Shown piece after piece: positions 1 to 19,296 of a stretch of DNA of 64,000 nucleotides. A program made the position numbers and the translations under genes. The DNA comes from Salinivirgaceae bacterium (GTDB lineage: Bacteria; Bacteroidota; Bacteroidia; Bacteroidales; SZUA-534): contig JAKSOL010000006.1 in NCBI GenBank assembly GCA_024405635.1, positions 46,136 through 110,135 of the forward strand, written 5' to 3'. A model generated the notes under the pieces. The model saw only the letters and a list, made by a program, of their open reading frames with translations. It did not search any database and was not told where the DNA came from. How positions within the stretch are numbered: the stretch's first letter is position 1; every line of letters begins with the position of its first letter.

Positions 1-710
1 GTTATCTTGGCCATTGACTTAACGCCACGAACAGAACGGAAATTGCAACTAGCAAAGTCGGCCTCATCATCAACTACAAGAACTTTTTTATGTTTGAGAT
101 ATGGCGACTTGGTGGTAAACAAGTCCTTAAGATGGTCGAGGTTTGTTTTTTCCTTTTTGCATACAATAACAATCTTTGCCTTGTTGGTTATTGACTCTTG
201 CAAGCCATTCTTCTTGAAATTTTCAAGAATATCAAATATTCTTACGACACCTTTCTGTCCAATGATTTGTTTGTCTTTGAAGCAAGCATAATCATCTTCA
301 AAGCGTTGTTGAGTCTGTGTCGCAAGCGTTTTTGTTCCTTTGGTCATTACAATGCAGATATCTATACCACGATCGAAAGAGAGTGCTATTATCTGCTCAA
401 AGGTGTTGGTTTTGCCACATTGTATCTTACCGAGGAGCAATACTGGCCATGTTGCATTCTGACAATCCTGTAGCAAAGCATCTACAGTGTTCCTGACGCA
501 CTTCTCCATATTTGACGAATGAGGTTGTACGACAGGATATGGCGAGTTACAACGAAGCGTGTTATACATATACTCTTCGTCATTATCTGCACCTTCAAGA
601 GTTGCAAGTTGCTTACGAAGAGGTGTTATAACATCATCACTCATACCAGCATTTTTCAAGTCGTTAATGCTGCGTCTGAGCGTCACAATTTGTTCTTGTT
701 TTGTAGCCAT
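1..710 (-). CDS. Z1-domain family protein, N-terminal SF2-helicase-like ATPase part (runs off the left edge; not in the ORF track)
   Basis: Manual translation from the ATG at 710 gives 236 open codons (MATKQEQIVTLRRS...). It contains LLGKIQCGKT (nt 431-408) and VLVVDDEADFAS (DDEAD at nt 71-57), matching the GxVQSGKT and IDDEADxAS motifs of Z1-family proteins. The Z1 domain itself would lie outside the window. Confidence 0.75.
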   Translation of the reverse strand, partial: MATKQEQIVTLRRSINDLKNAGMSDDVITPLRKQLATLEGADNDEEYMYNTLRCNSPYPVVQPHSSNMEKCVRNTVDALLQDCQNATWPVLLLGKIQCGKTNTFEQIIALSFDRGIDICIVMTKGTKTLATQTQQRFEDDYACFKDKQIIGQKGVVRIFDILENFKKNGLQESITNKAKIVIVCKKEKTNLDHLKDLFTTKSPYLKHKKVLVVDDEADFASCNFRSVRGVKSMAKI

Positions 711-742
711 ACATGTTGTGTTGTTTTTTTTCTATAATCATT

Positions 743-1963
743 TTACAATTTTAACCCCGAAGCTTTTGGCGAGAAGTCTTCGCGTATCTTAATACTAATA
801 GCACATGCAACCTCTGACTGAGGAAAGCCTAGTTTCTCACCAAAGTCATAGATGAGGTTCAACTCATTATCGCCAAGTTCGCCATCTGCAAATGCGACAT
901 CAATGAAATAACGGAGCATATTGTTTCGCATGTCAGGTGATATTTCGAGTACCTTGCTTACTGAGTCATTAAATGCCTGAGCCACATCGCCCTTCTCTAT
1001 TCGTTTCAACTTCTTATGGGGGAATAGGCAGTATGCTCCTAATTGTTTCACAATAAACTCTTCCTCGTTCTTGTCCGACTTTCCACCAAACTGAGATACG
1101 AAGATTCCTGCTGAAGCTATAAAGTCAGATAGGGCAGCATCCAAATCGTCGTATATAAAGTTCTGAAGGGCTATTATTAACTCGTTCATACCACGGGTGA
1201 GACCTGTCTGTGTCTTTGCTGTCGCAAATAACTCCAATGCCCTAATACGGATAGGATTAACAGGATGTGTACCTTCGCTGACACCATCACCTTTCATGAA
1301 GAACTCCAAACGCTTGCTATTCTCCGCCATCAAAGTGTCTATGCTTACATTCATCTTTTCGAGGAATAAGCCTGATGCCATCTTGAATACTGCTGTCACA
1401 CAAGCTTCAAGATTCTCGTTGGCCATATAACCGTAGCGGTCGGCCCCCAACTCTGCCAACTGACCATAGAGCTGTACTCGTTTACTCAAAAAGTCAGGAA
1501 CTTTTACTTTATCTTCTTCGGTTGGATAGATGAATCTAAATAATTGCGAGATTGTTGCATCGTTATTAATCAAGTGACCTATTTCGTGACCTATAACAAA
1601 CTTCAATTCTTCTTCGTTCAACAAATTGAATAGTCCTGAATTTATCTCTATAATATGTGGACGTTGCTCATCACCAGAGCAATACGAATAAGCGTTTACC
1701 ACACCGTCTCCTGTTATGTAAAAGTCAATATTACCTACAAATCCAAGTTTCTCTTTTACTTCTTGACAGATGACATAGAAGTGAGGCAACAATGTCTCAC
1801 TCACTTTTAGGCTATTGCCTTCCATCACACTGCGCAAGTTCATGTCAATGCCTGCGCCTTCACAATGCTGACGGATTATTTCTGTTACACTGCCTTGCAA
1901 TACGTTAAAAATCTGACGAGCAAGAAGATCTTGCATTTTGATTTTCGGATCTAGTTCTCTCAT
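743..1963 (-). CDS. Soluble M48-family Zn metallopeptidase fused to a C-terminal TerB-like domain
   Basis: Motifs FVIGHEIGH (HExxH), AELGADRYG (third ligand region) and THPVNPIRI. The C-terminus FIDVAFADGELGDNELNLIYDFGEKLGF has the TerB A-ADG-x3-E pattern. No hydrophobic TM segments. Confidence 0.8.
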   Translation of the reverse strand: MRELDPKIKMQDLLARQIFNVLQGSVTEIIRQHCEGAGIDMNLRSVMEGNSLKVSETLLPHFYVICQEVKEKLGFVGNIDFYITGDGVVNAYSYCSGDEQRPHIIEINSGLFNLLNEEELKFVIGHEIGHLINNDATISQLFRFIYPTEEDKVKVPDFLSKRVQLYGQLAELGADRYGYMANENLEACVTAVFKMASGLFLEKMNVSIDTLMAENSKRLEFFMKGDGVSEGTHPVNPIRIRALELFATAKTQTGLTRGMNELIIALQNFIYDDLDAALSDFIASAGIFVSQFGGKSDKNEEEFIVKQLGAYCLFPHKKLKRIEKGDVAQAFNDSVSKVLEISPDMRNNMLRYFIDVAFADGELGDNELNLIYDFGEKLGFPQSEVACAISIKIREDFSPKASGLKL

Positions 1964-2023
1964 TGTATCTAAGATTTGGAAGTTTCGAAATTTGCTGGAT
2001 TTATTTCCATAGGAATATTGTTT

Positions 2024-2542
2024 TTAGTACGTTTTTACATTAGCAATACTTTCGGGAGATGCCGTCTGTAAATCGACAGGCTGCGTTATTTCTATTTTGA
2101 AGTTTTTGCAAACAACATCAAAGTACCAAAGCGCGAGTTTGGGCCGAAAATCGTACATTAAGTGTTGCATGATATCCTTTACAGCCAAACTCTTTTTCCC
2201 CTTGACGAAGCAATAAAACCGAGTGATATGCAGGTTGTGGTACATCTGCATATTATAATTAGCCAATTTCATTTTTCCGTTAGGAGTTACAGCGTTTTTG
2301 TTAATAGCTGTAAGGTCGTTTTGGTATTCTGAAGTGTTACTTAAATAATCTATTTGCCCCATTACCGACAAAAGAAATTCCTTTTCAGAACGCTGCTCTA
2401 CAAGAAACTCTCGACTATCATTCCAAAGGTTATGAAGAAAGTCCATATATTCAGAATTCTTCATATTTTCTTGAATAATCATCTTGGCCAACGACTCTGG
2501 CAACAATTTTGTTAAGTATTCTTCTTCAGTGTATTTTGCCAT
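2024..2542 (-). CDS. Hypothetical protein (172 aa), translationally coupled to the upstream helicase
   Basis: Its ATG shares base 2542 with the helicase stop (TAATG). No recognisable motif. Confidence 0.7.
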   Translation of the reverse strand: MAKYTEEEYLTKLLPESLAKMIIQENMKNSEYMDFLHNLWNDSREFLVEQRSEKEFLLSVMGQIDYLSNTSEYQNDLTAINKNAVTPNGKMKLANYNMQMYHNLHITRFYCFVKGKKSLAVKDIMQHLMYDFRPKLALWYFDVVCKNFKIEITQPVDLQTASPESIANVKTY

Positions 2543-4803
2543 TATTCTTTGTCACTTTTTATTGTATTGCACTTTCTGCAAAGTAATTGTAGGTTTTCTG
2601 GAACCGACTTACCTCCGTTGTTCATAGCCTTTATGTGATCAACTTGGAACACGCTTTTAACGCGAGATGTTCTTCCGCAAATTGCGCACTTGTATTGGCC
2701 ATTTGGCTGTTTGGCTGCAAAGTACACACCTTCTCTCAATCGTTTTGCGTACATTGGATCTACTTCCTCAATTTGCTTAAGAGGAAGTTCGTCAAGATTG
2801 CGCTTTCCGTATTTTACATTGTTGTCCAATTGGTCGTAAATGTCGGGACGGCGAATTTTAAGTATCTCAACATCAACTTGTTTTAGGAAATAAGCCTTGC
2901 GTCCAAAGAACAATTTTATAATTTCTTCATCTTGGCTATCCCAAAGATTATCAAGATATTCGTCTTGTGCCCTTGCGCCCATATCTTGGTCGTAGATGTG
3001 TTGGGCTATTTTCTTTATGTCGAGGCGACTTCTGTCAACTTGCTCAAACTTGTAGAATTTAGGCGCATTGTCCTTTTGGCAGAAGTATCTGATAATGTTA
3101 ATGACATCTGACCTACGATATGGTGGAATCATGTAGTTATTGAAGTAGCTCTCGAAGCATCTTGCCTCCAATTCGTCAAGTATTTCATCGGTAGGATGCT
3201 CGACATCGGTAAGGTCGTATTCTTCAAGAAGATAAGGCATATCGTTCAGCATTGTGGCGTATGCTTCCATTGAGTTGTCGTAAACAATTACTTGACACTG
3301 CACATCGCCCTCGTTTTCTGTGGTGTATTGGAATACGTACATTCCCACAGGAATTCTCTGCATAAAGTCAACCTTTTCCAATTCTGAGGTATCAACCTGA
3401 CTGTCAAGTATCTTGGCAAACTCCTCGATTTTTGAAATTGCAATTGAACGAATGTTCTTAGTAAGATTATTGTATTCTGTTTCTCTGAATTCGTTGTCAC
3501 CATTGAATATAGTTTCAGGGTTAACCCACATAATGTTTTCGTTCCAATCGTCAACAAACGATACAATGTAAGCCTCTTCAGTACCACCAGCAGCAGGACC
3601 TCTTAGTGCGCGGCCTATCATTTGGGTCATTAAGATTGTGGAAGTTGTGGGGCGAGCCAAGAATACGGTTTTGGTTTGAGGAAGATCGACACCCTCGGTA
3701 AGTATATTTACGTTTACCAACACTTTCAGCGTTCCGTCTTGATATTCCTTTATCTTACGTTCGTTTTCTTCTTTTGAAATTGATGCTCCTGTTGCTGAAT
3801 CTTTTATCGATGATACAACATAATCGGCAATTCGTCCATTTTCGTTAAAAAGCTTGCAGAGCGATATTGCGTGTATTATGTTGGTTGCAAAAACGATTGT
3901 TGGTCCGTATAGTTCAGCATCTTCAAAATATTTGTTAACGATAAACCTATTACGGTTTGCATTCCCGGCCATTTTATCTGCTATGCTGTCTGGAAGAACA
4001 TCTAGTTGCATAATGTTGTTTATCTCGTCGAGACTGAGGTCGGTAAATTTTTCTTCGGTATAAAATATTTTCTGAATTGGTTTCGATAGTATTCGTCGGT
4101 TAATCAAATCTTGTAGGCTTACCGAGTACGCAATTCCAAGTTCGTTGTTAACTGCTATTCCGTCGCTGTTTACGCCGTCGGTAAAAATCTTGGCAAGCAA
4201 ACCCTGCTCGCTTTCCGATGTTCGGGTTGGTGTGGCTGTAAGACCAAGTATTTTAACATCCTCAACCTTTTCCCTAACGTATTGTATTACTCGGCGATAC
4301 GTTTTGGCGGTTGAGTGATGCGCCTCGTCAACAACAAGAAACAATCGGCTCTCGTTTTCAAGCCAAACATCAAGGCGGTCAAGATTGCGGCCTATGCTAT
4401 CTTTGCTTATTACCAACAAATTGTCGGTAGGTTCAATGTGGATTGTTTTGTCGTGGTGTGGTGCTCCTGAAACAACACGATAAGTGAAGTTTGGCACGCT
4501 TGGAAGGTTTTCGAGATAGGCAAACTTACGGAACGATTCCAGTGCTTGGTCCAAAAGCATGGTTCGGTGGGCAAGCCAGAGCACCTTAATTTTCTTGTCA
4601 ATAGCATTTTTGAGCAACCAAGTTGACGCTGTGTAGGTTTTACCTCCTCCAGTTGGCAGAACAACAAGTGTGCTGTATTTGTTGTTTTTGTTTATCACAC
4701 CAAGGTTTCTGAATGCTTCAACCTGATGTTGATATGGAGTACGCGGATTAGATGATTCTATGCGACTGATAACTCCAAATGATGTTGTTTCAACAGTTTG
4801 CAT
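2542..4803 (-). CDS. SF2 DEAH/ResIII-type helicase with a C-terminal HNH endonuclease
   Basis: Walker A LPTGGGKT, motif II VVDEAHH, motif III LGLTATP, motif V VNILTEGVDLP, motif VI QMIGRALRG. The C-terminus reads CAIC...QVDHIKAMNNGGKSVPENLQLLCRKCN (HNH with two CxxC). Confidence 0.9.
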   Translation of the reverse strand: MQTVETTSFGVISRIESSNPRTPYQHQVEAFRNLGVINKNNKYSTLVVLPTGGGKTYTASTWLLKNAIDKKIKVLWLAHRTMLLDQALESFRKFAYLENLPSVPNFTYRVVSGAPHHDKTIHIEPTDNLLVISKDSIGRNLDRLDVWLENESRLFLVVDEAHHSTAKTYRRVIQYVREKVEDVKILGLTATPTRTSESEQGLLAKIFTDGVNSDGIAVNNELGIAYSVSLQDLINRRILSKPIQKIFYTEEKFTDLSLDEINNIMQLDVLPDSIADKMAGNANRNRFIVNKYFEDAELYGPTIVFATNIIHAISLCKLFNENGRIADYVVSSIKDSATGASISKEENERKIKEYQDGTLKVLVNVNILTEGVDLPQTKTVFLARPTTSTILMTQMIGRALRGPAAGGTEEAYIVSFVDDWNENIMWVNPETIFNGDNEFRETEYNNLTKNIRSIAISKIEEFAKILDSQVDTSELEKVDFMQRIPVGMYVFQYTTENEGDVQCQVIVYDNSMEAYATMLNDMPYLLEEYDLTDVEHPTDEILDELEARCFESYFNNYMIPPYRRSDVINIIRYFCQKDNAPKFYKFEQVDRSRLDIKKIAQHIYDQDMGARAQDEYLDNLWDSQDEEIIKLFFGRKAYFLKQVDVEILKIRRPDIYDQLDNNVKYGKRNLDELPLKQIEEVDPMYAKRLREGVYFAAKQPNGQYKCAICGRTSRVKSVFQVDHIKAMNNGGKSVPENLQLLCRKCNTIKSDKE

Positions 4804-4860
4804 TTTAATAAATGTTTAGAGGTTTAATTAAATTTTAAGCAAACTATCAATCACATACGG

Positions 4861-5056
4861 ACAAAAAGAGAGGCGCGAACCGTTCTACTCACATTCACGA
4901 GGAGCCTCGGATGAACCTCGCTTACCAGTATAGAAAGTTCACGCCTATCGGCGGTTCTGTCATACTGGTAATAGGTCAGCGTAAGCTTCCCGTGAATTTG
5001 CTTTTATCCGATTATTCTAAACAATCAGTTTCCGAGGCTTTTTGTTTGAATGTGAA
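4861..5056 (-). promoter_or_regulatory. Structured 5' leader of the helicase operon; candidate attenuator or cis-regulatory RNA
   Basis: Perfect inverted pairs at 4889-4897/5047-5055, 4903-4911/5031-5039 and 4922-4931/4962-4971. An alternative stem (4871-4887 with 4931-4946) is followed on the sense strand by CUCUUUUU. Confidence 0.55.
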
Positions 5057-5094
5057 TAATAGCTAATGCGTTGTTATGTAATATGTTATATTTC

Positions 5095-5121
5095 TTTTAA
5101 AAGTTCTCTTTTCTGTTTTTT
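5095..5121. repeat. 27-bp direct repeat, copy 1
   Basis: TTTTAAAAGTTCTCTTTTCTGTTTTTT is identical to 5545-5571. Both copies are preceded by ATATGTTAT. Confidence 0.9.
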
Positions 5122-5178
5122 AACTAATTTATTTCTGTTTATAGTAAATTTATAACAAATACTTCAAAATCTAAACTT

Positions 5179-5367
5179 TCAATGCCTTTTTATGTCACCA
5201 ACACCATGCGTTTTCATTTGTTGGTGAAACACATCCTGTCTCACAAGAAAATCCTCTAAAGTCTTTTTGTCTGGGATTTGCAACATGTACGTTGACACAA
5301 AAAGTTTGTTGTCCATACCTGCCAATGCATATTCCACCATCTTCTTGCTTTTGTGGCATTTATATTG
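5179..5367 (-). pseudogene. C-terminal remnant of a YhcG/DUF1016 (PD-(D/E)XK nuclease) family gene
   Basis: The frame reads ...CHKSKKMVEYALAGMDNKLFVSTYMLQIPDKKTLEDFL..., which I recognise as the DUF1016 C-terminal signature. A TAA at 5370-5368 lies just upstream and the rest of the gene is absent. Confidence 0.65.
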
Positions 5368-5544
5368 TTATTGCCATAATATCTCTATTTTTCAAACTTT
5401 ACGAGATTACAAACCTATAGTTTTTCTACCATTCCACCATCATTGAATGTGGTTTGTATCAGAGAGAAAATGTAAGTTTCCGACGCTTCATTTTTTTTGA
5501 CGACCACAATGATAGTCTGATGCTGCTATGTTTTTTATATGTTA

Positions 5545-5571
5545 TTTTAAAAGTTCTCTTTTCTGTTTTTT
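5545..5571. repeat. 27-bp direct repeat, copy 2
   Basis: Identical to 5095-5121. Confidence 0.9.
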
Positions 5572-5634
5572 TAATCGTTAATCATCAATATAATCGATCA
5601 TCTCTTTCTCAAGTTTACTACCAATTTGTAGCGT

Positions 5635-5907
5635 TTATTCCCCAGCTATATAAACAACCGAATCCTCCGCCACTGTATGTTGGCACAGATTTGCTTGGGA
5701 AAACATGCCCTCAAAGCTAAGATCTTCGTCTAACAGAGGCCAATGAATGCCCGAATAGGAAAGAATGAAATTTTCTCGTTGAGACTGTGTGGCATTGCTT
5801 AAAGTTGGCCATTGAGAAAACAGATAACTAGCCACCTTGCCATCTTTTGTTTCTGCATACACCGCGCTATCATCCACCCAAACTCTCTTTATTGTCATCA
5901 TAGGCAT
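5635..5907 (-). CDS. DUF2442-family putative antitoxin
   Basis: Motif FPTL/WPTL..AT..QR.NF.LS..GIHWP.LDEDLS. It lies downstream of a DUF4160 gene with a TAATG overlap. Confidence 0.85.
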   Translation of the reverse strand: MPMMTIKRVWVDDSAVYAETKDGKVASYLFSQWPTLSNATQSQRENFILSYSGIHWPLLDEDLSFEGMFSQANLCQHTVAEDSVVYIAGE

Positions 5908-15803: not shown

Positions 15804-16730
15804 TTATGCGTTTGTGTTATCTGTTTTTGATTGCTCCGAAACCTCTACTTTTGGAGCCTCAGCGGTTGCTATTTTAGGTTCAGCAGGGGTTGCAGCTGGC
15901 TTTGGAGGCAATGGAGGGAAGTTTGGCGTGTGAATTGCGCCAGTTGGGCACTCTGCAGCGCACTTGCGGCATAAACGGCATTTGTTGTAGTCGATGTATG
16001 CAACATTGTTTTCAATAGTAATTGCCTCAAATGCACAAACTTTAGCACATTTACCGCAACCAATGCAGGCCGCTGTACAAGCTTTGCGAGCCACAGCTCC
16101 TTTGTCTTTGTTTACACACGATACAAATATGCGGCGGTCTTTAGGTCCTTTGTTGCGAATTTCAATAACGCCTTTTGGACAAGAGCGTGCACAAGCGCCA
16201 CATCCACCACATTTGTCTTGATCAACTTCAGGTAGTCCTGTTTCGTTGTTGATGCTTATTGCTCCCCAATTGCATGCAGCAACGCAATCGCCACAACCAA
16301 GACAACCATACGAACATCCTGTTTCGCCAGCAAATAAAGTTGCTGCAAAAGCACACGATTGAGCACCATCGTACTTGCTTGTTTTTGGTCGGTTTTGGCA
16401 TGTACCATTGCAACGTACAACAGCAATTTTTGGCGCTGCTGCCTTTATTTCTTGACCAAGCACTACACCAATTTGTTGCATTACTTCGTTGCTTGATACA
16501 GGACATCTTAAACCTTCGATGTTAGGAGCAGTAACCAATGCTGTGGCTAATCCTCTACAACCGGGAAATCCACAACCTCCACAATTTGCTCCGGGAAGCA
16601 TCTCTACAATTTGGTCGATGCGGGGGTCTTCTTCAACCTTAAATTTTTGAGCTACTATGTATAGCACCACTGCTAATACCAAACCCAAAACGCCAAGTGC
16701 AATAACACTGTACAAAACAATTTCGTTCAT
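15804..16730 (-). CDS. rnfB: Rnf subunit B (polyferredoxin)
   Basis: LPGANCGGCGFPGC and several 4Fe-4S motifs. Confidence 0.95.
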   Translation of the reverse strand: MNEIVLYSVIALGVLGLVLAVVLYIVAQKFKVEEDPRIDQIVEMLPGANCGGCGFPGCRGLATALVTAPNIEGLRCPVSSNEVMQQIGVVLGQEIKAAAPKIAVVRCNGTCQNRPKTSKYDGAQSCAFAATLFAGETGCSYGCLGCGDCVAACNWGAISINNETGLPEVDQDKCGGCGACARSCPKGVIEIRNKGPKDRRIFVSCVNKDKGAVARKACTAACIGCGKCAKVCAFEAITIENNVAYIDYNKCRLCRKCAAECPTGAIHTPNFPPLPPKPAATPAEPKIATAEAPKVEVSEQSKTDNTNA

Positions 16731-16734
16731 TTTG

Positions 16735-17148
16735 CTATTCTTTAATTATAAAAACGAATTTATTATTCAGTTTGTGGCGGAACATATACAGAACCGCATA
16801 ATAGGGTATTAGTATCAAAATTGATACCAATCCGCTTTGCAACTCGCTAAAACAGCATTGCAAGCATACAATTAACGTAATTACAACTAAAACAAACGGC
16901 ACTATATAAGCCAATGCTATTGCGCTGTTTGCCATTGCTTTGCTGCCCGATACTAACACTCGTTGACCAACAGTGTATGTGCGTCCATTGGTTTGCGCAA
17001 CAACTTGTTTTTCTGCTTTTTCCGACGATAGGCACATGTCTTTTGAATGGCATGCAGAACAAGCACTACTGCACTCAATTTGTACAGTTACGGTGTTACC
17101 GTTACTTGAAATAATTGTGCCGCTTTTTGAGAAATCGGTTGTGCCCAT
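16735..17148 (-). CDS. rseC: SoxR-reducing system RseC family protein
   Basis: SACSACHSKDMC motif, two C-terminal TM helices, first gene of the rnf operon. Confidence 0.85.
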   Translation of the reverse strand: MGTTDFSKSGTIISSNGNTVTVQIECSSACSACHSKDMCLSSEKAEKQVVAQTNGRTYTVGQRVLVSGSKAMANSAIALAYIVPFVLVVITLIVCLQCCFSELQSGLVSILILIPYYAVLYMFRHKLNNKFVFIIKE

Positions 17149-17370
17149 TAATTGTAATTATTCGTTGGCGAAAGTAAGAAAAATAGGTAATTGGAAATAA
17201 GTATTGTGCTTGTAGTTATGAGCAATAAATAACAATTGATGATTACTGAGCGAAAAGTGTTGCTTTAAATGAATATTGTTTTGACCCCAAACACAATATA
17301 TGATTAAAGGTGGAATAGGGAATGAGCAATAAAAAAATCCAGCTGAATATTATTTCAACTGGATTTGCTT

Positions 17371-17457
17371 TGGTGCCCAGAACAAGACTCGAACTTGCAC
17401 GAACTAATGTTCACCACCCCCTCAAAGTGGCGCGTCTACCAATTTCGCCATCTGGGC
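17371..17457 (-). tRNA. tRNA-Leu(GAG)
   Basis: Acceptor GCCCAGA...TCTGGGC-A-CCA; anticodon arm CCACT-TTGAGGG-GGTGG; long variable arm; T-loop GTTCGAGTC. Confidence 0.95.
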
Positions 17458-17465
17458 TTATGATG

Positions 17466-17549
17466 TGCCTAAAACAGGACTCGAACCTGCACGTTCTTGC
17501 AAACGCTAGTCCCTGAAACTAGTGCGTCTACCTATTCCGCCATTTAGGC
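17466..17549 (-). tRNA. tRNA-Leu(CAG)
   Basis: Acceptor GCCTAAA...TTTAGGC-A; anticodon arm CTAGT-TTCAGGG-ACTAG; long variable arm; CCA not fully encoded. Confidence 0.95.
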
Positions 17550-17559
17550 AACGGGTGCG

Positions 17560-17567
17560 CAAAAGTA
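17560..17567 (-). promoter_or_regulatory. -7 box of the tRNA-Leu pair
   Basis: TACTTTTG lies 10 nt upstream of the first tRNA. Confidence 0.65.
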
Positions 17568-17744
17568 AATAATTATTGAAACAAACAAGCACATTATTAA
17601 TGTGTGGTACTTTTTATTTGTCTCGTTAACATTATTAATCTATCCGTATTAGTGTAAATCGTAAGGTATAACGCCATCAAGAGCGTCGCATGCCAATGCA
17701 AGTGTTTTCAATCCAAAAATTATGACTGCGAGCAAAAGACTCAA

Positions 17745-17966
17745 TTATTTTTTCTGTGAGTACATTGGATGAGTTTGCAGCAATTCTTCGTTCCTCTTCA
17801 TCTGTTCTAAATCATCTTTCCGCGATATAGGTTGCTGCCGTAATTTTTCTATTGCAGCCAAACAACTCTCGCTTCTCTTTTTGTGTTCCTCGTTCAAATA
17901 TACTGGTTCGTAACCAAGAAGATGAGCAAATCGATATGCCATATTTGTATATTTTTTCTGTTTCAT
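17745..17966 (-). CDS. Small hypothetical protein (73 aa)
   Basis: ORF in an otherwise gene-poor kilobase; no recognisable motif. Confidence 0.4.
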   Translation of the reverse strand: MKQKKYTNMAYRFAHLLGYEPVYLNEEHKKRSESCLAAIEKLRQQPISRKDDLEQMKRNEELLQTHPMYSQKK

Positions 17967-18288
17967 GCAAAATTACATCAATATTCTTCATTAAAACAAT
18001 CTCCATTATTATTCTAATTCTTAACTAATTTACTGAAAATTTTTCGGATTAGCAAGACTAAAATGTTGTTTGTTAGCGCTTTTTTCCAACCAAACGGAAG
18101 TGTGCCATCGTTGTTAGCTTAAATGTAGTTTACGACCTTAACATTAAGGCCTGCTCTCGTTTCTGCTTCGGTACAGTAATAAACATTTTCGTTGCCACGT
18201 AGGCTGAAATATTGATTAACGCCTCGCTATCTAGGCGTTGCTGTTTTGCCCTCAATGCAGTTGTTTCAGCGTTGAACATTAAATCTGA

Positions 18289-18450
18289 TTAGCGCGGATA
18301 GACGTATTCAACATTTGCGTTGTTTTCTGCATTGTAACGATCAATAATACGGCGTGTTTCCTCGTCGCTCAGTATGCGAACTATGCGTATTGCATCAGCA
18401 ATATACCAGTCCATTTTGTCGTCTTGCGCTGCTTTTTATTGCGTAACAAA
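18289..18450 (-). pseudogene. Degraded gene fragment, possibly phage or mobile-element derived
   Basis: The frame EFVTQ*KAAQDDKMDWYIADAIRIVRILSDEETRRII...YPR* has an internal stop. The W-IA...RILSDEE pattern looks protein-like. Confidence 0.3.
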
Positions 18451-18555
18451 TTCAGTAGATTAACGTTTGCTCCAACTAAATGTTTTGATGCAAAACAAGG
18501 TTCAATAACCATAAACATAAAGTTGTTTTATATTCGCCGAGTTAAATAGTAGATT

Positions 18556-19296
18556 ATGGATATTACGTATAAAACTGAGTATCAAATACTTTCGAATCAT
18601 GTTGGAGCTGATTACAAGGCTCGTCTTTCTACTTTAATGTGTTTTTTCTTAGAGTCGGCCTATCATCATGCAGTAAAATTGGGTGTTGGTAGTGAGTTGT
18701 TGCGCGACAAACACAATGTTTTTTGGGCATTGTACCGCATACATATCGAAATGAATGAGTATCCAAAATGGCGCGACAAAATAACCATTGAAACATGGCC
18801 GGCTGGCACTAACCGTTCGTTTGCTTACCGTTGTTTTCGTATTTATGCCGAAGATGGCAGTTTGCTTGGACAAGGCATAACCGATTGGATTATAATGAGT
18901 TTTGAAACACGTAAGTTGGCCGATGCAACACAGATTTTTGCATCGAGCAATTTGCCAACCGAGAATATGGGCGATAAATTAGGTTTGTCAAATACCAAAA
19001 TAAGATTGCCAAAAGAGAATCCTATAAGTCAAATTCAGCGCATGACCGTTTATAGCGACATTGATATAAACAATCACGTAAATAGTGCTCGTTATCTCGA
19101 TTATGCTGTAGATGCTTTGGATATTAACGAGGTACAATCAAAACCAATAACAGTGGCAGACATTAATTATAATGCCGAAGTGGCAGTTGGTCAACCTATT
19201 GATATAAAGGTATATAACACCGAAAAAGGGTATATTGTATCGGGCGAAAAAGCTGACGGTACACAATCGTTTACTGCCCAAATAAAACTAGGGTAG
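18556..19296 (+). CDS. Acyl-ACP thioesterase (FatA/FatB-like)
   Basis: Double hotdog fold; DIDINNHVNSARYLDY motif. Confidence 0.9.
   Translation: MDITYKTEYQILSNHVGADYKARLSTLMCFFLESAYHHAVKLGVGSELLRDKHNVFWALYRIHIEMNEYPKWRDKITIETWPAGTNRSFAYRCFRIYAEDGSLLGQGITDWIIMSFETRKLADATQIFASSNLPTENMGDKLGLSNTKIRLPKENPISQIQRMTVYSDIDINNHVNSARYLDYAVDALDINEVQSKPITVADINYNAEVAVGQPIDIKVYNTEKGYIVSGEKADGTQSFTAQIKLG

Follow-up and report, generated by a model that had tools for sequence, protein, structure and literature searches.

A helicase-HNH nuclease operon with a probably detachable 3' cassette of protease, DEAD-Z1 and ASCH-like genes in a Salinivirgaceae bacterium

The locus and its structured leader

The left end of a 64,000-nt stretch of a Salinivirgaceae genome (the window; contig C33:46136-110135 of the source genome, G000) carries four minus-strand genes, which encode a superfamily 2 (SF2) helicase fused to an HNH nuclease, a small coupled partner, a soluble M48 zinc metalloprotease with a TerB-like C-terminus (M48-TerB) and a DEAD-Z1 translocase, and which an initial annotation had read as one dedicated and undescribed defence system. 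The comparison of each gene with its relatives points instead to a composite operon, in which a nuclease module and a detachable set of 3' riders would share one leader. The layout first proposed is confirmed in its coordinates and spacing, with a 1-nt overlap followed by gaps of 60 and 32 nt, and the cluster is indeed open at the left edge of the window: the sequence left of position 1 was retrieved (L003, C33:32136-52135, in which the L003 position equals the window position + 14000), the gene cut by the edge encodes 999 aa, and a co-oriented 288-aa gene begins 5 nt after it, so that the cluster comprises five genes (Table 1). The domain calls are likewise sound, with Pfam matches for helicase-HNH, M48 and Z1 and a weak one for TerB, as is the association of the parts with defence, all of them being defence or restriction-type genes.

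Table 1. Features of the locus and members of the protein X family (window positions unless a locus or contig is named)
Feature	Coordinates	Strand	Basis or remark
SF2 helicase-HNH nuclease, 753 aa	2542..4803	-	Pfam ResIII, DEAD, Helicase_C, HNH
Coupled helicase-HNH partner, 172 aa	2024..2542	-	1-nt overlap; no family match
Soluble M48 Zn-metalloprotease with C-terminal TerB-like domain, 406 aa	743..1963	-	Pfam M48, TerB
DEAD-Z1 translocase, first 236 codons of 999 aa	1..710 (edge-open reading frame 3-710)	-	Pfam Z1
Full DEAD-Z1 gene, 999 aa	L003 11711-14710 = G000 C33:43846-46845	-	extends left of the window
ASCH-like gene 5, 288 aa	L003 10839-11705 (left of the window)	co-oriented	homology to ASCH proteins
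Terminator-like hairpin after gene 5	L003 10747-10725	-	terminator scan; adjoins a strong bidirectional hairpin
Structured 5' leader	4825..5070	-	covariation; copies in relatives
Protein X members	L004:8233-9798, L011:13746-15866, L012:13311-14861, L048:10112-11665(-), L135:4414-5967, L086:2740-4314		

The terminator scan detects no minus-strand terminator-like site in the three intergenic gaps. The Bacteroides -7 motif is missing from the internal gaps and from the leader too, which makes this negative a weak one, and a sigma-70 promoter scan returns the background level, the sigma-70 consensus being ill-suited to Bacteroidota. Co-transcription is plausible because the gaps hold neither a terminator-like site nor a -7 motif and a terminator-like hairpin follows gene 5, and the five genes probably share one leader and one transcript. 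The GC content of the five genes, overall and at third codon positions (GC3), equals the genome average, and the modules are not separable by composition. The island is bounded on the left by a gene for an outer-membrane beta-barrel protein and on the right by a DUF4160/DUF2442 pair, followed by adk, hpt and valS. The toxin-antitoxin pair said to adjoin the operon is there, as this DUF4160/DUF2442 pair, while the YhcG remnant placed next to it was seen by eye only; a type I restriction-modification (RM) remnant, sought upstream of the island, was not found among these genes. In the same region two direct repeats of ~26 nt (AAAAACAGAAAAGAGAACTTTTAAAA, minus strand) lie at window ~5094-5120 and ~5546-5572, a short open reading frame (ORF) between them (window 5180-5360) resembles the C-terminus of YhcG/DUF1016, and window 5436-5547 has an 83% copy at G000 C7:53258-53362.

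The structured leader proposed from the window is real and belongs to a family with covariation. Its end, a hairpin and U-run ~20 nt ahead of the helicase-HNH start codon, resembles an attenuator. RNAalifold gives a consensus fold of 55 pairs in which 92.9% of cells are paired. Changes on both sides occur in 13 of these pairs, compared with 6.1+-1.7 for the shuffles (0/500) and 0-6 for the slid controls; Rfam has no matching family. Copies occur in 14 of 151 relatives, and each of six full copies stands at the 5' end of another RM or defence-like operon, ahead of its first gene; these operons start with helicase-HNH, with a 260-aa ORF and methyltransferase pair (twice), with a Dcm-like methyltransferase, or with unknown genes (two). 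One copy, 75% identical, sits in the source genome itself (G000 C7:46005-46252), before a 260-aa ORF, restriction endonuclease-like by position only, and an N6/N4 methyltransferase pair, and others precede the 85% helicase-HNH homologues of L013 and L014. Besides the window and C7 of G000, loci L112, L114, L115 and L120 carry members of this ~230-nt leader family. Over L003 18884-19678 (window 4884-5678), the summed metagenome contig depth rises to ~960, compared with 24.6 for the genome, and the metagenome runs contain many alternative joints that skip 67-115 nt; this depth and these joints suggest that the community abounds in varied relatives of the leader/repeat element.

The genes and their separate contexts

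The four-gene set recurs nowhere else, which is the outcome that the initial annotation had itself set against a single dedicated system, and the gene-neighbourhood comparison that it proposed finds the set absent from the other contexts of each gene. No other helicase-HNH context (~12 contexts) has M48-TerB or Z1 beside the nuclease, none of 13 other independent M48-TerB contexts includes helicase-HNH or Z1, and neither M48-TerB nor a close helicase-HNH occurs in 61 other Z1-family loci, 58 metagenome loci among these. A near-identical strain gives more direct evidence of separability. Run X2, a different gut metagenome with a near-identical strain, yields contigs at least 99% identical to the reference over L003 9500-10488 (left flank) and 16021-19069 (partner, helicase-HNH and leader), and no contig over L003 10553-16020, where the ASCH-like, Z1 and M48-TerB genes lie. 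One of the X2 contigs departs from the reference exactly at L003 16021, 3 nt past the partner stop codon, and continues for at least 255 nt with sequence that matches nothing in G000 or in any fetched locus. The three downstream genes seem to be missing from the X2 strain, and its divergent joint is positive sequence evidence of a different junction, arguing that the 3' cargo can be swapped en bloc.

The helicase-HNH protein matches ResIII (7.8e-25), Helicase_C (1.3e-11) and HNH (3e-12) in Pfam and contains a Walker A motif GGGKT (K55), a DEAH box at 159-162 and a Zn-ribbon HNH at 706-752 (H723). Its best PADLOC match, among the best 25 of 34 families, is mREase_IV (2.8e-24, residues 3-472), which covers the helicase core only, and its best match in the PDB is 7clg (SauUSI; E 2.1e-21, residues 4-197 and a second stretch). 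In an AlphaFold2 (AF2) model of residues 418-753 searched with Foldseek, the HNH part matches 4h9d (prob 0.99) and Hpy99I, and the uncharacterised middle domain (residues ~430-700, ~270 aa) matches no PDB structure. The protein has more than 4,793 homologues alike in length and architecture, most of them gut Clostridia proteins with 57-58% identity, and the distribution among relatives is patchy (4 of 101). The contexts comprise two Bacteroidales metagenome-assembled genomes with 85% homologues, a 64% clade beside Abi_2/HepT, a Lachnospiraceae metagenome-assembled genome, a Clostridia species in which the genes have housekeeping genes on one side and metK/rpsL on the other, and, in a neighbouring genus, two species (G004 and G020) whose helicase-HNH and partner are syntenic in position and differ in downstream cargo, a third gene, X, being present only in G004. 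The partner (~180 aa in the family) is kept in every one of these contexts and nothing else is common to them; no context examined has a methyltransferase beside the two genes. Helicase-HNH and its partner would thus form a two-gene module that is autonomous, occurs very widely and is absent from the catalogues. They would act as an ATP-dependent restriction nuclease, possibly a modification-dependent one, of which the lack of a methyltransferase beside them is an indirect hint.

Small ORFs homologous to the partner, each overlapping the helicase stop, are present in L013, L014, L015, L028-30, L031-34, G004 and G020, and a transitive BLASTP chain joins these partners into one fast-evolving family, of which a single-sequence phmmer search recovers only 6 clusters among 1.8e9 representatives. 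The domain libraries return no family match for the 172-aa protein. Its AF2 model (predicted local distance difference test score 75.9) shows a helical N-domain and a helix/strand C-terminal region, which may be winged-helix-like as read from its topology, and Foldseek finds no significant fold match (best E 0.8). The protease had been supposed to cleave an inhibitor, perhaps this protein; the partner is nevertheless kept with helicase-HNH in contexts that have no adjacent protease, and such a model fails for nearly all family members because helicase-HNH keeps only its coupled partner. Genomes that have no protease at all still conserve the partner beside helicase-HNH, and this distribution indicates that it is not a protease-specific inhibitor.

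The protease matches Peptidase_M48 in Pfam (1.7e-14), has a single HEIGH motif at 126-130 and no transmembrane segment that could be found, and belongs to a family of 1,166 proteins of ~405 aa. The TerB match is weak (2.1e-4, below the Pfam cut-off), and many homologues carry a precomputed PF05099 match; a PDB sequence search gives none. The neighbours of M48-TerB were tallied over 14 independent contexts, the window included. In 8 of them the gene lies behind hsdR of an EcoR124-like type I RM system (L006, L009, L016, L017-24, L025, L026, L044/45, L132), in 2 behind protein X (L004, L135/136), in 1 behind helicase-HNH and partner (the window) and in 1 behind a 264-aa unknown, with nothing relevant upstream in the other 2. 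M48-TerB therefore directly follows a same-strand restriction-type nuclease gene in 11 of the 14, usually at a spacing of 14-37 nt, and it is in turn directly followed by an ASCH protein homologous to gene 5 in L025 and L044/45. A phylum-wide genome search recovers M48-TerB in 2 of 401 genomes and is uninformative. The only M48-TerB of G000 is on C33, and its one EcoR124-like hsdR, on C31, has no adjoining peptidase and is 54-58% identical to hsdR genes that are followed by M48-TerB; given the lack of a peptidase beside it, action of M48-TerB in trans on the C31 HsdR is conceivable. The type I RM locus to which this hsdR belongs (G000 C31:45126-54143) consists of hsdM, two inserted genes, hsdS, another insert and the EcoR124-like hsdR.

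The Z1 protein has a DEAD-like Walker A (GKIQCGKT, 94-101), a DDEAD motif (214-218) and a Pfam Z1 match (5.2e-23), and PADLOC assigns residues 68-782 to 'Helicase_II' (9.3e-44), which we take to be the CglI/NgoAVII H-subunit class from the model description and the shared DEAD-Z1 architecture (PMC5861437). Neither Pfam nor PADLOC indicates a nuclease domain, and a PDB sequence search gives no match. Residues 821-962 share homology with the 288-aa protein, in its C-terminal half (E 7e-8), and with stand-alone ASCH proteins, of which NCBI names some ASCH and one has PF04266; Pfam makes no direct ASCH call on the 288-aa protein, and an ASCH-family profile has no match among PDB sequences. The ASCH fold is PUA-like and predicted to be a reader of modified bases, and the one bacterial member to have been characterised is an N4-acylcytosine amidohydrolase (PMC11037411, PMC12707154). 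The public gene call for the ASCH-like gene begins at an internal Met (166-aa product, P0246). The longer reading of 288 aa, which includes an acidic linker and an N-terminal domain that is uncharacterised, finds support in homologues 280-300 aa in length.

The closest Z1 relatives lie behind a BPTD_3080-family restriction endonuclease and methyltransferase (L010) and between a WYL regulator and protein X (L011, L012); a second scan of genome contigs with the Z1 alignment gave the same three loci. A metagenome scan, with neighbours clustered and the clusters annotated, adds 58 Z1-ASCH loci, 38-62% identical and with many near-duplicates, which form a sister clade with the operon BrxC(DUF6079)-PglXI-PglZ-BrxA-like-Z1ASCH-SprT-like peptidase: BrxC is upstream in 38, PglXI in 44, PglZ in 50 and BrxA-like in 46 of the 58, and a SprT-like Zn-peptidase lies ~33 nt downstream of Z1-ASCH in 31. 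A Zn-protease beside Z1-ASCH or ASCH consequently recurs with two unrelated families, M48-TerB and SprT-like. The type 3-like bacteriophage exclusion (BREX) operons of this kind (L054-L110, e.g. L082, L087, L093) have Z1-ASCH in the helicase position and optional AlbA_2/HATPase_c_4 or X-like inserts. In L012:10019-13285 a Z1 homologue is split by an in-frame stop into ORFs of 595 and 474 aa, either as a pseudogene or through a sequencing error, and G000 C7:4610-6013 holds a second, distant Z1-domain paralogue with 25% identity and a 731-aa open frame. Protein X is an unnamed family of 516-706 aa that is the direct neighbour of helicase-HNH and partner, of M48-TerB and of Z1 in different genomes; it has no firm Pfam match and none in PADLOC or NCBIfam, and its C-terminus gives a weak HSDR_N-like (PD-(D/E)xK) signal.

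Comparison with catalogued systems

No catalogued multi-gene system matches the set (Pfam, PADLOC and NCBIfam, all proteins), in agreement with the view that it is undescribed, and by its sequence relationships the locus seems most like a SauUSI-type motor-nuclease with appended accessories. SauUSI (7clg) is an ATP-dependent type IV restriction endonuclease (PMC7913695; also PMC3141236). It is the best match of the helicase-HNH motor and, like it, combines motor and nuclease in one polypeptide with no cognate methyltransferase. In contrast, SauUSI has an N-terminal PLD nuclease, whereas the window protein has a C-terminal Zn-ribbon HNH and an obligate small partner gene; Pfam finds neither PLD nor DUF3427 in helicase-HNH, nor any DUF3427/SRA-like target-recognition domain.

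The prototype of the DEAD-Z1 double-stranded DNA translocase is the H-subunit of CglI/NgoAVII (PMC5861437), with which the window Z1 protein shares the DEAD-Z1-C-terminal architecture. The window protein is however longer (999 aa versus 632 aa) and has an added C-terminal ASCH-like domain, its relatives reside in BREX type 3-like operons or with other nucleases, and neither a PLD-B3 R-subunit nor a cognate methyltransferase of the CglI/NgoAVII type is found among the five genes or in the flanks. The sister clade links the protein to BREX type 3 through the BrxC-PglXI-PglZ-BrxA-Z1ASCH-SprT operons; membership of the window locus is rejected, BrxC, PglX and PglZ being absent from it, and the BrxHII models of PADLOC give no match to the window Z1 protein.

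For the protease, the nearest likeness is one of position. In enteropathogenic Escherichia coli's RptR-RMS-DarTG-M48 (RRDM) island, an uncharacterised M48-family metallopeptidase gene lies directly downstream of hsdR (PMC12255303), which is the position held by the window protease's relatives in 8 independent loci. The window protease instead follows helicase-HNH and partner with no type I system adjoining, and it has a TerB-like C-terminal domain. A functional analogy, and no more, links it to the restriction alleviation exerted by ClpXP, a protease acting on a translocating restriction motor, which degrades the HsdR of EcoKI only during translocation (PMC12707154); ClpXP is a general ATP-dependent housekeeping protease, whereas the Zn-peptidase here is encoded in the operon.

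Four further systems were considered and rejected. For Mza, the NCBIfam MzaC model scores 46.7 bits against a cut-off of 1500 and no other Mza component was found. Shango combines SngA (TerB-N/TerB-C) with the ATPase SngB and the helicase SngC, while the TerB-like domain of the window is fused to an M48 protease, and no PADLOC Sng model is among the matches listed for the five proteins (for helicase-HNH, the best 25 of 34). Hhe is listed among HEPN-containing systems (bioRxiv 10.1101/2024.10.26.620412); the window protein has HNH and no Pfam HEPN match, and no Hhe model is among the best 25 of 34 PADLOC families, which sets aside Gao_Hhe. The defining components of MANTIS are missing or far below the cut-offs.

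A composite operon and its alternatives

The locus is best read as a composite operon of two evolutionary units, A and B, sharing one leader, to which we give a probability of about two in three (0.68). Although such a combination is new, and its parts are all uncharacterised, the locus is a mosaic. Gene content, modular distribution and the different X2 junction are what the sequences show, and all of the biochemistry that follows is inferred. Unit A, helicase-HNH with its ~180-aa partner, would be a SauUSI-like motor with a Zn-ribbon HNH in place of the PLD nuclease; the motor would translocate on foreign DNA, possibly modified, and the HNH domain would cut it, while the fast-evolving partner may tune specificity or activity in the manner of a specificity or regulatory subunit. 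Unit B would be a detachable 3' rider cassette of M48-TerB, DEAD-Z1 with its ASCH-like end and the ASCH-like protein, each of which is elsewhere a 3'-terminal rider in other defence operons of the translocating, methylation-based kind. In the weakest part of the scheme, modified DNA or a restriction complex bound to DNA would be found by a motor together with a PUA-like reader, and the Zn-protease might then remove or inactivate the stalled nuclease motor, with restriction alleviation or turnover as the outcome, as ClpXP does with EcoKI HsdR. That the riders give proteolytic control or clearance of DNA-bound restriction motors is a tentative idea, favoured because two protease families recur near Z1-ASCH or ASCH and because the RRDM island and ClpXP offer precedents.

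Several points weigh against the composite reading and the functions attached to it. The contexts are few, 14 for M48-TerB and ~12 for helicase-HNH, and the 58 Z1 loci are only 38-62% identical, with many near-duplicates. Logan contigs, from which the X2 strain was read, are a better proof of presence than of absence. Defence-island hot spots, and not function, could account for the way riders recur beside nucleases, and M48-TerB (L005, L027) and a 291-aa ASCH protein (L039-43) also occur alone among housekeeping genes and may be autonomous. The Z1 motor has no evident nuclease partner at the locus, and the ASCH label derives from family names and one precomputed Pfam match, without a direct profile or fold match.

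The most probable of the alternatives, still an unlikely one, is that the locus is a pure defence-island stack: helicase-HNH and partner, M48-TerB, and Z1-ASCH with ASCH would each be autonomous immune or abortive-infection (Abi) genes without interplay, for example Z1-ASCH as a modification-dependent type IV-like motor and M48-TerB as a stand-alone Abi protease, and their adjacency would come only from the accumulation and exchange of defence genes at the 3' ends of restriction operons. The solitary M48-TerB and ASCH genes just mentioned, the high variability of the partners of every part, and the uniform GC, with no sign of a recent single transfer, are in keeping with it. The recurrence in independent lineages of a Zn-protease with a translocating nuclease (11/14), of Z1-ASCH with the other Zn-protease (31/58) and of M48-TerB with ASCH argues otherwise, as do the typical same-strand spacing of 14-37 nt, which goes beyond loose island co-location, and the Z1 motor, which has no nuclease domain of its own.

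An integrated system, as first proposed, is very unlikely. It would have TerB sense a phage or envelope cue, M48 cleave the 172-aa protein as an inhibitor, and the freed helicase-HNH, helped by Z1, degrade DNA. Tight, co-oriented genes behind one leader without internal terminators, the lack of any catalogued match and the tendency of M48-TerB to follow nuclease genes all suit this model; they are outweighed by the retention of the partner with helicase-HNH in all other contexts examined, none with an adjacent protease, by the huge size of the helicase-HNH family (>4,793 homologues), by the set's failure to recur, and by the near-identical strain that appears to be without the protease and Z1.

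Least probable of all is a back-up of the PrrC/RloC type, in which the riders stay silent until a phage anti-restriction protein blocks the upstream enzyme and the protease then destroys a host or phage target: PrrC/EcoprrI is a precedent for an accessory gene in a type I RM operon, the position embedded in or appended to such operons is analogous and the TerB-like domain could be the sensor, but no toxin-like effector domain is recognised besides the protease, and M48-TerB is also found without a neighbouring nuclease gene.

Beyond the composite operon itself, a wider extension can be put forward, although we regard it as doubtful: Zn-proteases (M48-TerB or SprT-like), ASCH readers and DEAD-Z1 motors might constitute an unrecognised accessory layer on the 3' ends of translocating restriction systems (type I RM, BREX-3-like, X, helicase-HNH), which would control these systems by proteolysis or back them up, and which here would have been captured by helicase-HNH and its partner and be driven by a new attenuator- or riboswitch-like leader common to several RM operons of this bacterial family.

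For the biology of these bacteria, the modular picture takes the place of a new four-gene system. It brings out a helicase-HNH and partner module that has thousands of members in gut Firmicutes and Bacteroidales and is absent from defence catalogues. The Zn-proteases that recur behind translocating restriction nucleases (HsdR, X, BREX-like Z1) suggest a dedicated proteolytic control of restriction motors, a control so far known only through the housekeeping protease ClpXP, and the covarying leader shared by several RM operons points to regulation of restriction at the RNA level in Bacteroidales.

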